From a virus (taxonomy: Duplodnaviria; Heunggongvirae; Uroviricota; Caudoviricetes): a stretch of 64,000 nt of DNA. The notes beneath the pieces are model-generated. The model did not search any database and was not told where the DNA came from. It saw nothing but the letters and a program-made list of their open reading frames with translations. The DNA is taken from positions 134,607 through 198,606 of IMG/VR virus record IMGVR_UViG_3300029288_000054. One strand, 5' to 3'. Positions 45,830-60,759 of this stretch are shown here, in pieces. The position numbers and the translations under genes are program-made. The first letter of the stretch is position 1, and each line of letters opens with the position of its first letter.

Positions 45830-46390
45830 ATGGCAGATTTAATTGTTTCAGCCGGTTTTAAATCTGGTAAATTGACGGCTATTGAGCCGATTCTTGGCGG
45901 TAAGTTTTGGCTATGCCGTTGTGAATGCGGAAAAACAACAAAAGCCTCAAAATGGCACCTGTTGAGGGGGTTGCGACAAAGCTGTGGTTGTCGTACCAAA
46001 CAAAAACAACAAATAATAACCTGTACAATTTGTGGCTTCGAAGGGACAATTGATGATTTCTACTCACGTAAAGATGGTAATATAAATTCATACAAATGTA
46101 AAAAATGCCTGATCAAGCTCTCACATGAGAGGCAGCGTAAAACGCGCCTAAAAGTGTTGCAACACTACGGAGGAGAAGTACCGAAATGTGCATGCTGCGG
46201 AGAATCACATACAGAATTCCTGTCTATCGACCATATTAATGGTGGCGGGAATAAGCATAGGAAAAATAATAAGATAGTATCAATATACGCTTGGCTTTAC
46301 AAACACAAGTTTCCTGATGGTTTCCGCGTCCTCTGCCATAACTGCAACTTTTCTTACGGCTTGTACGGCTATTGCCCACACACTAAGTGA
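45830..46390 (+). CDS. HNH homing endonuclease
   Basis: WLCRCECG...SCGC N-terminus; CACC...LSIDHING...VLCHNCN. Confidence 0.85.
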   Translation: MADLIVSAGFKSGKLTAIEPILGGKFWLCRCECGKTTKASKWHLLRGLRQSCGCRTKQKQQIITCTICGFEGTIDDFYSRKDGNINSYKCKKCLIKLSHERQRKTRLKVLQHYGGEVPKCACCGESHTEFLSIDHINGGGNKHRKNNKIVSIYAWLYKHKFPDGFRVLCHNCNFSYGLYGYCPHTK

Positions 46391-46442
46391 ACCTTCGACT
46401 TTTGAAATATGTCCTTGACATAGAGAACATTGACGTATTTAA

Positions 46443-46471
46443 TTAATTATTGGTCAGTTTTGTGCTATAAG
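46443..46471 (+). promoter_or_regulatory. phage promoter for the Y RNA/Ro60 cluster
   Basis: TTAATT-17-TATAAG; the first Y RNA starts 5 nt later. Confidence 0.8.
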
Positions 46472-46476
46472 CAAAT

Positions 46477-46610
46477 GTGCTGTGTGGCGCAGAAGTGGGC
46501 TACTTCGCCTACGGAGCGGGTGGTCGCGGGTTCGAATCCCGTCACCGGTTCGCCGGTGTAGCTCAGTTGGCAGAGCACCTACGTACCTACTTCGCTTATT
46601 CCCACAGCAC
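46477..46610 (+). ncRNA. YrlA-like Y RNA 1 (tRNA module, ACG loop)
   Basis: Terminal stem GTGCTGTG/CACAGCAC, GAAGTGGG/CCTACTTC helix, T arm GCGGG-TTCGAAT-CCCGT, acceptor closed by TTCG, D arm GCTC-AGTTGGCA-GAGC, followed by a T run; upstream of Ro60. Confidence 0.9.
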
Positions 46611-46677
46611 TTTTTGACAATAAAGGAGCACATGAACTCGCGGCAATGCGACTGCGGCGGATTGTGCTCTTACGACT

Positions 46678-46760
46678 TGCCGCATGGCGTAGAAACGGGT
46701 TACTTCGACTTGAAATCGACCGCCCTTCGGGGCTTTCTCGTTTCGCTTGTTCCTGCGGCA
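46678..46760 (+). ncRNA. short Y RNA 2 (no T/D module, TGA loop)
   Basis: TGCCGCA/TGCGGCA stem; shares TGGCGTAGA...GGG.TACTTCG and TTCGCT..TTCC with RNAs 1 and 3; GCCC-TTCG-GGGC hairpin. Confidence 0.75.
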
Positions 46761-46769
46761 TTTTGAAAC

Positions 46770-47180
46770 ATGCACTCTACCGGAGCAAAAGGAGATATTG
46801 GAGTCGCCGCTGTCACGGCTGATTTGTTGGAACGTGGATTCGATGTCTTACTTCCACTTTCATCAACTTCACCATACGATCTTGTCGCCACTGATGGCAA
46901 CAAGTTTTGGAAAATCCAAGTCAAGTATGTCTCCGAGAAGAATGGTAAAGTCTGGTGTGAGGTAAGACGGACAGTTATCACCAATAGCAAAATCTCCAGG
47001 CGTAGGTTTCATCAGATTGAGATAGATGTAGTTGCTGTGTACTGTCCGCAATGGAAGCAAGTCTGCTACGTAGCGATGCAAGATGTGGTATCGGTGACAA
47101 TCCGACAAACCTATCCGGCGAATGGGATTAAAAACAGCATTCGTCTCGCTTCGGAGCATATGCGTTTTCCGCCGACTTGA
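46770..47180 (+). CDS. PD-(D/E)XK homing endonuclease (I-Ssp6803I-like)
   Basis: KGDIG...LLERGF.V..P....PYDLV...KIQVK. Confidence 0.82.
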   Translation: MHSTGAKGDIGVAAVTADLLERGFDVLLPLSSTSPYDLVATDGNKFWKIQVKYVSEKNGKVWCEVRRTVITNSKISRRRFHQIEIDVVAVYCPQWKQVCYVAMQDVVSVTIRQTYPANGIKNSIRLASEHMRFPPT

Positions 47181-47195
47181 ACAATATTTAAGAGA

Positions 47196-47331
47196 TTGCT
47201 GCGTGGCGTAGAGGTGGGATACTTCGAATGCTAATCGAGAGGTCGCCGGTTTGAGTCCGGCCATCCGAGCAATCGGATGTAGCTCAGTTGAATAGAGCGC
47301 TACGTACCTACTTCGCTCATTCCCGCAGCAA
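47196..47331 (+). ncRNA. YrlA-like Y RNA 3 (tRNA module, GCT loop)
   Basis: TTGCTGCG/CGCAGCAA stem; T arm GCCGG-TTTGAGT-CCGGC; acceptor CATCCGA-GCAA-TCGGATG; D arm GCTC/GAGC; compensatory changes relative to RNA 1. Confidence 0.9.
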
Positions 47332-47349
47332 CTTTCATTTGGATGCGTT

Positions 47350-47526
47350 ATGATTGCGACTGACACTGAATTTCAGAGTGTGGAGCAGCTTATTGCCGAA
47401 CTTGAGACCGAGATAATTGATCTCGAAAAGTTAAATCGCTCGCCAGACGTAGGATTAGCGATCGAGCAACGGCAGCAACACATTAACAACCTGAAAACAG
47501 AAATTGCCGAGTACGTAACGCAATAG
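47350..47526 (+). CDS. 58-aa coiled-coil protein
   Basis: Manual translation MIATDTEFQSVEQLIAELETEIIDLEKL...; lies between Y RNA 3 and Ro60. Confidence 0.65.
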   Translation: MIATDTEFQSVEQLIAELETEIIDLEKLNRSPDVGLAIEQRQQHINNLKTEIAEYVTQ

Positions 47527-47537
47527 GAGAATATCAC

Positions 47538-48935
47538 ATGGCAGCCATCAACAAGAAGACGAAGAAGTCACACGTTTACGCCGATGAAAAGTTGGCGGGT
47601 GGATATGGTCCAAGGGCTGCCAAGCAGAACGCAGAGGCAACTTTACGCCGTCTTGTCATGACGTGTCTCTTGTGGGAGGATAACGCCTATTGCGACGGAA
47701 AAGCTGTCGTAGATCAGATCAAGGCGTTGGTTCCGCAGGTGCCGAACGTTGGTAAGATTGCTGTTGAGGCTCGTTATGAGCAGAAGCTTCGACACGTACC
47801 GCTGATGCTTGTCCGCGAAATGGCTCGTCATCATATGCCGGATGTGGCCGAGACATTGGCGAAAGTGTGCAACCGTCCGGATGAGATGACAGAATTCATC
47901 GCCATGTATTGGGCTGATAACGCCAAAAAGAAGTCGCTTGCGGCTGCCGTGAAGAAGGGCTTGGCGAAGGCGTTTGGTAAGTTCGACGAATACCAACTGG
48001 CCAAGTACAACCAGACGGATCAAGCTGTGAAGCTGCGAGACGTCTTGTTCTTATGTCATGCAAAGCCGACCGATGATCGTCAGGATCTCTATAAGCGGCT
48101 AATCATCAACGAGCTTAAGACTCCCGATACGTGGGAAGTTGGTATGTCGGCGGCTAAGAGCGTTGCCGAAAAGCGAGCAGTCTGGGAACGGTTGGTCGAG
48201 GACCGAAAGCTTCCGGCGTTCGCTTTCCTCAAAAACCTGCGAAACATGCAGGAGGTAAACGTCTCACGTGAGTCGATGGCGAAGGCATTTGCGAACTGTA
48301 AAGTGGACATGTTGTTGCCAATCGATTTCTTGAAGGCCCGTAAGTATGCCCCGGATTGGACCCGAGAGATCGAGGAGTTGATGTATCGATGTGCTCAGAC
48401 GTGGCCGAGACTTTCAGGCTGGACGACTTTAGCCGTCGACGTTTCTGGTTCGATGGGAAGTGCCGTGTCCGCCAAATCTGAATTTTCTCGGATGGACGCA
48501 GCCGCTTCGATGGCGGTTTTAGCAGCGGAGTGCTGCGACCACGTTTCCATCTACGCTACGGCTGGAAACGATGGTACGCGAAAGCATGCCACGAAGAAGA
48601 TAGAAGCCCTTCGTGGTTTCGCCCTGGCCGACAAAATCTTGGAAGCGAAGTACACCCTCGGCGGTGGAGGTATCTTCACCAGACAAGTCTGCGATTTCAT
48701 CCGCAGCAAAGAAGAAGCACCTGATCGGTTGCTTATTTTCAGCGATTCGCAAGACTGCGATGCACCTGGATCGGGCCTGCCGAAGCCGCATGGCAAGAGC
48801 AACTACATCATTGACGTCTCTTCACATTCGCACGGCGTCAATTATCAAGGCGTTTGGACTGCCGAAATTGCTGGCTGGTCTGAACGTTTCTTGAAGTTCG
48901 TTGCGATGATGGAACAAGCTGACAGCTTGCAATGA
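47538..48935 (+). CDS. rsr: Ro60 ortholog (TROVE plus vWA)
   Basis: KFDEYQLAKY, VKLRDVL, TPDTWEV, LKNLRNM; vWA MIDAS DVSGSM and IFSDSQD; flanking Y RNAs. Confidence 0.95.
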   Translation: MAAINKKTKKSHVYADEKLAGGYGPRAAKQNAEATLRRLVMTCLLWEDNAYCDGKAVVDQIKALVPQVPNVGKIAVEARYEQKLRHVPLMLVREMARHHMPDVAETLAKVCNRPDEMTEFIAMYWADNAKKKSLAAAVKKGLAKAFGKFDEYQLAKYNQTDQAVKLRDVLFLCHAKPTDDRQDLYKRLIINELKTPDTWEVGMSAAKSVAEKRAVWERLVEDRKLPAFAFLKNLRNMQEVNVSRESMAKAFANCKVDMLLPIDFLKARKYAPDWTREIEELMYRCAQTWPRLSGWTTLAVDVSGSMGSAVSAKSEFSRMDAAASMAVLAAECCDHVSIYATAGNDGTRKHATKKIEALRGFALADKILEAKYTLGGGGIFTRQVCDFIRSKEEAPDRLLIFSDSQDCDAPGSGLPKPHGKSNYIIDVSSHSHGVNYQGVWTAEIAGWSERFLKFVAMMEQADSLQ

Positions 48936-60051: not shown

Positions 60052-60759
60052 CTATGTTGGTTTCCAGTTCCAAACGTCCTCACCATAAGTTTCAGCGAAG
60101 TATTTGCCGTCAACTTTATCGCCTCGGACGAATTTTGCGAGGAAATCAACTCGGCCAAGTCTCTCAACTCGATATACGACGCCTTCAATAGGATCAATAG
60201 CACCATGATGATTTCGTTCTTGAGCAAATTTGAGAGCGACCGATGGGAGCATTGGTGGCCCCATTGATATTACGAAAGGTGTAATCAGTCGCGTGGCAGC
60301 GATGCGCTCGCAAAATTCGCTGAATACAGCTCGTCTGTCGAGCTTTTTACGGCTCTTCATAATATCGAAAGGCACAAAAGGTTCGTGCCACAACTTATAG
60401 CGGGTGCTATGTGCTAATGCGAGCCACTCTCCGACGACCCTTTCACCCTCTTCGAGCCAGGTAAAACGATCAACGTTCTCCATCACCCAGTTATGAAACA
60501 TCCGATGATGATGCCAGGGGGCTGAGACGGCTGGCCATCCGGCCCTATTCAACGGCATAATCAAACCATTGAGCCGGGCAACGGCACAACATGAACCATC
60601 AAGTTTCTCCTGAATAATAACCCGGTCGAATTCGTCGCGTACCTTCTTGGTGCAGATGACGGCCATCCCCTCATCGACATTATGGTCACCAGGGCCAAGC
60701 CGACTATTCGGCAGGTGCCCGATGCTACCATACGCTTTACGCCCAAGTGGTTTGCTCAT
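60052..60759 (-). CDS. RNA ligase (Rnl2-like nucleotidyltransferase)
   Basis: QEKLDGS, GEW, FVPFD, EGVVYR, LAKFVR; start at the second Met because the promoter -10 overlaps ATG 60798. Confidence 0.8.
   Translation of the reverse strand: MSKPLGRKAYGSIGHLPNSRLGPGDHNVDEGMAVICTKKVRDEFDRVIIQEKLDGSCCAVARLNGLIMPLNRAGWPAVSAPWHHHRMFHNWVMENVDRFTWLEEGERVVGEWLALAHSTRYKLWHEPFVPFDIMKSRKKLDRRAVFSEFCERIAATRLITPFVISMGPPMLPSVALKFAQERNHHGAIDPIEGVVYRVERLGRVDFLAKFVRGDKVDGKYFAETYGEDVWNWKPT

Follow-up and report, generated by a model that had tools for sequence, protein, structure and literature searches.

The 64,000-nucleotide (nt) stretch of viral DNA analysed here, which we call the window, comprises bases 134607-198606 of IMG/VR record IMGVR_UViG_3300029288_000054. 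The whole record is 388 kb long and ~99% complete, so the window belongs to a jumbo phage. On its + strand, three small RNA genes (46477-47336) are followed by an open reading frame (ORF) with a TROVE domain (47538-48935), and the RNAs lie 0.2-1.1 kb upstream of this ORF. An initial annotation of this DNA had described the locus as a phage Ro60 with three Y RNAs, each displaying a different anticodon-like loop, and this description is borne out by the TROVE match, by alignment with the Ro60 of phage phiLo and by Rfam YrlA matches for RNA1 and RNA3. From comparison with related RNAs, we conclude that the hairpin carrying these loops appears to be a true anticodon arm, and that the triplet it displays changes faster than the rest of the RNA.

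The ORF at 47538-48935 (+ strand) encodes a 465-residue Ro60/Rsr homolog with a TROVE ring (Pfam TROVE, E=1e-14) and a vWA domain that matches Pfam vWA_Ro60 weakly (4.5e-3), and it also matches PHROG 850, "RNA-binding protein" (7e-33). Residues 24-460 align with the Ro60 of Thermus phage phiLo (9KOP / 9L5Y, E=1e-15), the closest solved protein. DxSxS is invariant in the Ro60 alignment A1 (D301, S303 and S305) and is read as a putative MIDAS motif. The ORF has more than 7800 homologs in public data, most of which sit on phage contigs or on contigs of metagenome-assembled genomes (MAGs) with inconsistent taxonomy. All 39 genome-contig matches of this Ro60 subfamily (L049-L087) are MAG contigs, and the phyla to which these are assigned have no relation to one another (among them Pirellulaceae, Bacillota, Paceibacterota and Nitrososphaerota). 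They probably represent phage DNA that was binned into MAGs, and one of them, L052, is identical to viral contig L014.

Upstream of this ORF, RNA1 (46477-46615, + strand) and RNA3 (47196-47336, + strand) are YrlA-class permuted tRNA mimics. In RNA1, the Ro-type stem (46477-46499 / 46586-46610) leads through YUAC (46500-03) into an anticodon-arm mimic (46506-46520, + strand) that consists of C29-G30-C31, the loop CUACGGA (46509-15; anticodon ACG, G37) and GCGGG at positions 39-43, in which the partners of G42 and G43 are C46579 (position 28) and C46578 (position 27). The T arm (46526-42), an acceptor stem closed by UUCG (46543-58), the D arm (46561-76) and a U-tract at the end complete this RNA. 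The arm of RNA3 (47225-47239, + strand) has C29-G30-A31, the loop AUGCUAA (47228-34; anticodon GCU, A37) and UCGAG at positions 39-43; here A42 and G43 pair with U47301 and C47300, and G26 (47299) lies opposite A44 (47240). Both RNAs follow the same order, which is terminal stem, YUAC-UU, the hairpin with its 7-nt loop, a variable loop of 5 nt whose last base is C48 (UGGUC in RNA1, AGGUC in RNA3), T arm, acceptor stem (6 base pairs (bp) capped by UUCG in RNA1, 7 bp capped by GCAA in RNA3), U8-A9, D arm and base 26.

Of the bases that make tertiary contacts in tRNA (G18 G19, U54 U55 C56 and G15:C48), RNA1 has the full set. RNA3 differs at 19:56, where its T loop UUUGAGU (47255-47261) and its D loop AGUUGAAUA (47284-47292) replace G19:C56 with A19:U56, a double-sided change that is not seen in the closest orthologs, those of the related loci L007 and L003. 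RNA1 and RNA3 both have what makes up an anticodon-arm module, namely a 5-bp stem, a 7-nt loop, U33 and a purine at position 37 (R37), as well as the apposition of 26 and 44 and then a 4-5-nt variable loop to C48. A free 7-bp acceptor with a CCA-capable 3′ end, as in a tRNA, is absent from both, their acceptors being sealed by UUCG or GCAA. RNA1 and RNA3 are complete tRNA mimics in circularly permuted order that cannot be charged, just as the initial annotation had claimed.

RNA2 (46678-46764, + strand) is reduced. It consists of the Ro-type stem, UUAC-UUCGA, the loop CUUGAAA (46709-15), UCGA and a hairpin of GCCC-UUCG-GGGC; it has neither T arm nor D arm and lacks the permuted tRNA order with its tertiary bases, and it gave no match in Rfam, even in E-value mode. 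The loop coordinates first given for the three RNAs are exact, and each loop stands after YUAC-UUCG. The YUAY motif itself reads CUAC in RNA1, UUAC in RNA2 and AUAC in RNA3, and it is nearly invariant in A3, a MAFFT alignment of 22 full-length RNAs.

YrlA RNAs (Rfam RF02553) have been described from S. Typhimurium, M. smegmatis and mycobacteriophages (Chen 2014, PMC4201824; Wang 2018, 10.1101/312249, PDB 6CU1). The RNAs of the window resemble them in lying next to Ro60/Rsr, less than the ~4 kb away that delimits the class, on the same strand, in having the Ro-binding module in the terminal stem, in occurring as several Y RNAs per locus, in the YUAY motif (which holds the kink-forming UA in 6CU1), in the permuted order of T arm, closed acceptor, UA and D arm, and in their tRNA tertiary bases. 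They differ in the 5′ motif, which is GGCG-YAGAR instead of GNCGAAN0-1G; the corresponding region, at which Rsr would bind, reads GGCGCAGAAG, GGCGUAGAAA and GGCGUAGAGG in the window. These sequences depart from the literal motif and follow a conserved variant, GUGG(C/U)G-YAG, which faces CGCYUNUUCCC in the internal loop of the terminal stem. The window RNAs also score under the Rfam gathering cut-off, which is 69 bits for YrlA. At that score Rfam found nothing in the RNA region, and YrlA matches appear only in E-value mode, where RNA1 is matched in part (43.7 bits, E=3.9e-8) and RNA3 over its full length (35.8 bits, E=7.3e-6). Both fall under the cut-off because the Rfam YrlA model has no positions for the extra hairpin. 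R1, our own covariance model of the T-acceptor-D core, gives 70.1 bits for RNA1 and 65.0 bits for RNA3. The Rfam tRNA model gives RNA3 18.8 bits, and ARAGORN and Rfam tRNA at its gathering score, run over the whole window, returned only tRNA-Leu and none of the Y RNAs.

The feature first called an anticodon hairpin does read as an anticodon-type arm, but it is not a simple self-contained hairpin, because its stem is composite. Three base pairs (29-31) use the incoming 5′ strand, and the top of the stem, 27:43 and 28:42, is formed with two bases past the D arm. Covariation links bases 42-43 to the pair of nucleotides just 3′ of base 26, in the combinations AG:CU, GG:CC, CG:CG, GU:AC, GC:GC, UG:CA, CC:GG and UC:GA. 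At least 67 of 76 RNAs have strict Watson-Crick geometry at both pairs (the regular expression used is to blame for most of the nine exceptions), as against a mean of 32 and a maximum of 43 in 20,000 shuffles, and 0-1 of 76 when the partner is shifted by one base. We considered and rejected a simple hairpin whose 5-bp stem would include the 5′ UU, since the UU is invariant and cannot pair with 42-43 in 14 RNAs (42-43 = CG, GC, GU, CC, UC or UG); 13 of these 14 pair 42-43 with the 3′ strand instead.

Applied to the 22 full-length relatives, the proposed structure has 96.3% of cells paired, compared with 74.5% after shuffling and 40-47% in slid controls. The compensatory changes that the initial annotation had noticed extend across these relatives, in which 30 of the 39 pairs change on both sides, with every helix represented and both pairs of the 27-28:42-43 helix included. 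At 26:44, G26/A44 and A26/U44 predominate across the family. Minimum free energy folds of single RNAs conflict with one another at the junction, so we took the structure from the comparative data. With 27-28 coming from the strand that leaves the D arm and 29-31 from the 5′ strand, positions 39-43 form one continuous strand. The Ro-type stem is predicted to join where the strand is interrupted, between 28 and 29, by way of two single-stranded linkers that include the conserved YUACUU. On this comparative evidence, the hairpin after YUAC-UU, which has been drawn for YrlA RNAs as a "V" arm, appears to be an anticodon arm.

The same arrangement of Y RNAs upstream of Ro60 on the same strand is found in L003, L007, L008 and in Xanthomonas and Mycobacterium phages. 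L003, a 364-kb relative with an 81% identical Ro60, has the same three RNAs, with the loops AAUCGGA, CUAUAA and CUUGAAA. The loops of L007 are AUGCUAA and AAUUGGA, and those of L008 are CUAUGGA, UUCCUAA and CUUGAAA; the L008 ortholog of RNA2 retains a T arm and is without the hairpin. Xanthomonas phages MET23-P3 (L001 2955-3560) and Tabio (L002 2530-3140) have five tandem unannotated Y-like RNAs upstream of a Ro60 that is annotated as "hypothetical protein" and has TROVE+vWA domains. These five RNAs have in common GGUUACUUC and a 3′ ...UUCCCC... motif, and only the last of them carries the anticodon arm (CUGUUAA). The Y RNA of Mycobacterium phage Sparky has the loop AUUGCAA. A diversified anticodon display, as initially proposed, thus holds both within one phage (ACG, UGA and GCU in the window; AUG, CCU and UGA in L008) and between relatives.

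To gauge how common the arm is, R1 was searched against 85 Ro60-anchored loci, which yielded 66 distinct tRNA-like Y RNAs after tRNA tandems were dropped and with no motif required. A 3-bp stem with a 7-nt loop in the tRNA register occurs in 40 of the 66, and the arm together with U33 and R37 in 33, a combination that shuffled controls pass at 3%. The anticodon arm is therefore common, yet not universal, in the family. Dimeric tRNAs are a source of false positives to YrlA models (Chen 2014, PMC4201824), and a third YrlA match, L006 (G000:C1:218293-218453, outside the window; 27 bits), was discarded as a tRNA-Met(CAU)/tRNA-Thr(UGU) tandem with a short spacer.

For a larger sample, viral and metagenome collections were scanned with TTACTTCG-N{8,20}-GGTCGNNGGTTCGA, a pattern that leaves the loop and the 3′ strand free. 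This gave 227 unique RNAs, 164 of which (72%) have the exact 14-nt spacing that accommodates N31, a 7-nt loop, positions 39-43 and position 44. Unconstrained loops among homologs would have spoken against the initial annotation, but the loops of these 164 relatives are constrained and keep U33 (156 loops, 95%), R37 (160, 98%) and A38 (139, 85%); 31:39 is Watson-Crick in 161, with all four pair types occurring. Positions 36 and 37 are coupled, with G37 in 37 of 40 loops that have G36 and in 4 of 124 that do not (table [[37,3],[4,120]], p=1e-28), and this coupling is that of real tRNAs carrying m1G37. Upon this constant frame the 164 RNAs display 43 different anticodons, GUU, GAU, UGU, UGG and GCU being the commonest. 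At position 36 these loops have U (59%), G (24%), A (12%) or C (5%), compared with U in 39%, A in 24%, G in 20% and C in 17% of 769 real tRNAs encoded at the same loci. In the viral subset, 5 of 84 Y loops have A36 or C36 versus 320 of the 769 tRNAs (p=2e-12), a depletion that sets the anticodon spectrum of the Y loops apart from a random sample of phage tRNAs. The most frequent anticodon of phage tRNAs, CAU, is rare or absent among the Y loops.

The rate at which the triplet changes was compared in 24 independent RNA pairs with an identity of at least 85% outside the loop. Per-site difference is 41.7% at positions 34-36, 17.7% at the other loop positions and 8.0% in the rest of the RNA, so that the triplet changes ~5-fold faster than elsewhere (odds ratio 8.2, p=2e-14). 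The swaps put one complete, valid loop in place of another, as with AUUAGGA and AUCUGGA (98% identity) or CUGUUAA and CUAAGGA (86%). Replacement of one valid loop by another is the opposite of decay, and it argues for selection on the displayed anticodon. We also considered whether one of the phage's tRNAs had donated its arm by gene conversion and rejected this, because tRNA-Ser(UGA) has the loop of RNA2 but a different stem.

The hairpin as a structure is already known. A "V" stem-loop upstream of the T arm was drawn for many YrlA RNAs (Chen 2014, PMC4201824), so what is new is the reading as an anticodon arm and not the hairpin. Where the YrlA papers see a variable arm, the hairpin here combines with the 27-28 pairs into a 5-bp, 7-nt-loop anticodon arm that keeps tRNA loop grammar and has a hypervariable triplet. 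Salmonella YrlA was said to lack "the anticodon loop", and an effector that binds the elbow was expected (Wang 2018, 10.1101/312249). Our literature search, which did not reach the supplements of Chen 2014 or two Wolin-lab reviews, found no paper that treats the V arm as an anticodon arm. A related system is that of phiLo, where a phage-encoded Ro60 ring likewise has two or more Y-like RNAs just upstream; phiLo Ro60 binds its Yrl1 and Yrl2 RNAs and forms complexes with host PNPase (PMC12135203; PDB 9KOP, 9L5Y). The phiLo Yrl RNAs differ in being described as stem-bulge-stem with a CGAA motif, and the paper never uses "YrlA" or "anticodon" and uses "tRNA" only twice (PMC12135203).

Because its 3′ end is sealed while elbow and anticodon arm are correct, such a mimic can be seen only by factors that read the anticodon arm, and fast switching together with different anticodons within one phage points to a variable partner. 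The explanation that we favour, with about even confidence in it, is that these are Y RNAs with a true anticodon arm and a fast triplet that are read by an anticodon-loop-binding factor, most likely host anticodon nucleases. A factor that reads tRNA anticodon loops and has no need of a free 3′ end would bind the arm, for which reason the arm would be retained, and Ro60 would hold or protect the RNA. Each Y RNA could in that case serve as bait or decoy, or could sense cleavage and so alter the action of Ro60, and a panel of different anticodons would track the nucleases that the phage meets. A more specific version, in which the V arm is a fast-switching specificity cassette, Ro60-tethered panels of unchargeable mimics face anticodon-loop cutters or readers, and an arms race shapes the repertoire, is tentative and in our view somewhat doubtful.

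There are parallels. Phage-encoded tRNAs evade anticodon nucleases, and T4 Pnk/Rnl repairs PrrC-cut tRNA-Lys; these concern the conflict over tRNA-targeting host defence that the Y RNAs would also serve, and they include variation centred on the anticodon loop in phage genes. They differ in being working tRNAs or enzymes, whereas the Y RNAs are unchargeable and linked to Ro60. Bas63 gp130, a Ro60-like protein, counters the ppl defence system (preprint 10.1101/2024.10.10.617714), and as a phage Ro60-like protein beside tRNA-like genes with an experimental counter-defence role it may be taken, by analogy, as a precedent for counter-defence by phage Ro60. It differs in that the protein is divergent, the RNA family is another one and the proposed target is a DNA-degrading system rather than tRNA cleavage.

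Other partners or origins can be proposed for the arm. It might be kept for host enzymes that modify position 37 or the loop, such as TrmD (G36-G37), the t6A machinery (U36-A37-A38) or Tgt (U33-G34-U35), which would stabilise the mimic or be recruited or titrated by it. Positions 36-38 are UAA or GGA in 125 of the 164 loops, which are the determinants for t6A37 and m1G37, and A36 and C36 are depleted relative to real tRNAs; moreover, Salmonella YrlA is modified by DusA and TruB (Chen 2014, PMC4201824). We nevertheless consider modification enzymes unlikely as the explanation, since for them anticodon identity would be relevant through position 36 only, which leaves the rapid turnover of 34-35 and the several anticodons per phage unexplained. 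Alternatively, the arm might dock the Ro60-Y RNA particle in the ribosomal decoding site or on a translation factor, codon-specifically, and so bring Ro60 to ribosomes. The entire L-shape is mimicked along with the anticodon arm, and binding to the ribosome or a translation factor was named as a possibility for YrlA (Chen 2014, PMC4201824), but the sealed acceptor end rules out delivery by EF-Tu, and the Ro stem exits at the anticodon stem, in a position that may bring it into collision with the 30S subunit. Docking is thus very unlikely in our estimate.

The loop might instead be functionless, the hairpin being a relic of a tRNA-dimer origin of YrlA or an ordinary variable arm that owes its tRNA-like grammar to descent or to repeated recombination with tRNA genes. 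The published V-arm label and the published models that derive YrlA from dimeric tRNA transcripts (Chen 2014, PMC4201824; Wang 2018, 10.1101/312249) speak for this, as does the frequent adjacency of Y RNA genes to tRNA genes. A relic, however, is expected to decay rather than to exchange one valid loop for another, and U33, R37 and A38 are nearly invariant across clusters of <80% identity while 34-36 are the fastest sites. The CGN/NCG stem scaffold stays constant beneath many loops, which would not be so had the arms been copied from different tRNAs, and the match between RNA2 and tRNA-Ser(UGA) stops at the loop. We therefore rate a functionless arm as quite unlikely. An origin of working tRNAs, split or permuted, from these RNAs as precursors would fit the 7-bp acceptor stem and full set of cloverleaf elements of RNA3, and yet it is highly improbable. 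The acceptors end in UUCG or GNRA loops, which are very stable, and vary widely in length (RNA1 has 6 bp, and relatives have anything between ~5 bp and long insertions), there is no conserved discriminator or CCA, the Ro stem would remain attached within the anticodon stem, and anticodons with A34 (AUG, AUU and AUC) are present.

Several observations weigh against an arm read by anticodon nucleases. About half of the tRNA-like Y RNAs beside Ro60 have no arm, a point that also suits a relic, and some relatives have A33 or C37 (L003, L007, L017, L064 and L078), from which it follows that the arm is dispensable for Ro60 function as such. RNA2, said initially to keep only the anticodon hairpin, does have the loop next to its small UUCG hairpin, but its "anticodon" seems less constrained, given that the loop of its L003 ortholog, CUAUAA, has 6 nt. 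The sample fetched by pattern (TTACTTCG ... GGTCG..GGTTCGA) covers one sub-branch of the family, and the bias to U36-A37-A38 and G36-G37-A38 suits position-37 modification enzymes at least as well as nucleases. That the two half-helices stack into one anticodon stem is inferred from strand continuity. Finally, RtcB was not found in the 388-kb genome.

The partner of the tRNA-like domain of bacterial and phage Y RNAs has been in question since 2014, and the published expectation is a tRNA-binding protein that recognises the elbow. That a large branch of the family keeps a correct arm with a fast-swapping triplet narrows the candidates to anticodon nucleases, loop-modifying enzymes or the decoding site. 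If the Y RNAs are nuclease bait, they would represent a new RNA-based principle of counter-defence, and if the arm is a specificity cassette, this would reveal to which class the effector of the tRNA-like domain, long sought, belongs. The same feature occurs in the cultured Xanthomonas albilineans phages MET23-P3, Tabio and Olaya, all three with the loop CUGUUAA, and in Mycobacterium phage Sparky, which makes it approachable by experiment.

Two endonuclease ORFs lie among the RNA genes or next to them. A PD-(D/E)XK endonuclease ORF of 136 residues (46770-47180, + strand; Pfam PDDEXK_5, E=3e-26) is located between RNA2 and RNA3, and an HNH endonuclease ORF (45830-46390, + strand), found by profile searches (Pfam / PHROG), sits just upstream of the RNA array. 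Where the window has the PD-(D/E)XK ORF, L003 has only a 150-nt spacer. Because it is missing there, the two endonuclease ORFs are probably selfish, homing-type insertions into the Y RNA locus, and the PD-(D/E)XK ORF is not a component of the Ro60-RNA particle.

Before RNA1 there is a promoter-like block (46410-46476, + strand) with TTGACA ... TGcTATAAG, the second of these elements ending ~6 nt before G46477. Some 65 nt of it, TCCTTGACATAGAG ... GACGTATTTAATTAAT ... TGCTATAAG, are nearly identical upstream of RNA1 and of its L003 ortholog (L003 2120-2185), and this conservation suggests that the block may be a phage promoter from which the RNA starts ~6 nt past TATAAG. A scan with the sigma-70 consensus, in which the 46410-46476 block was unscored, gave no promoter for the three RNAs, and a terminator scan at the RNAs gave matches at chance level only.

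Farther away in the window are an RNA-ligase-family ORF (60130-60624, - strand; PF09414, 47.6 bits) and an RlaP-like nucleotidyltransferase that continues beyond the window start (1-378, - strand), which together form a possible RNA-repair or RNA-damage context for the Ro60 locus. The phage's own tRNAs are Leu-UAA, Ser-UGA, Arg-UCU, Thr-UGU and Met-CAU. In L003, an ORF upstream of the Y RNA array (1573-1988, + strand) has no counterpart at this position of the window and, judged by eye, looks like a YbiA/NADAR-type domain.

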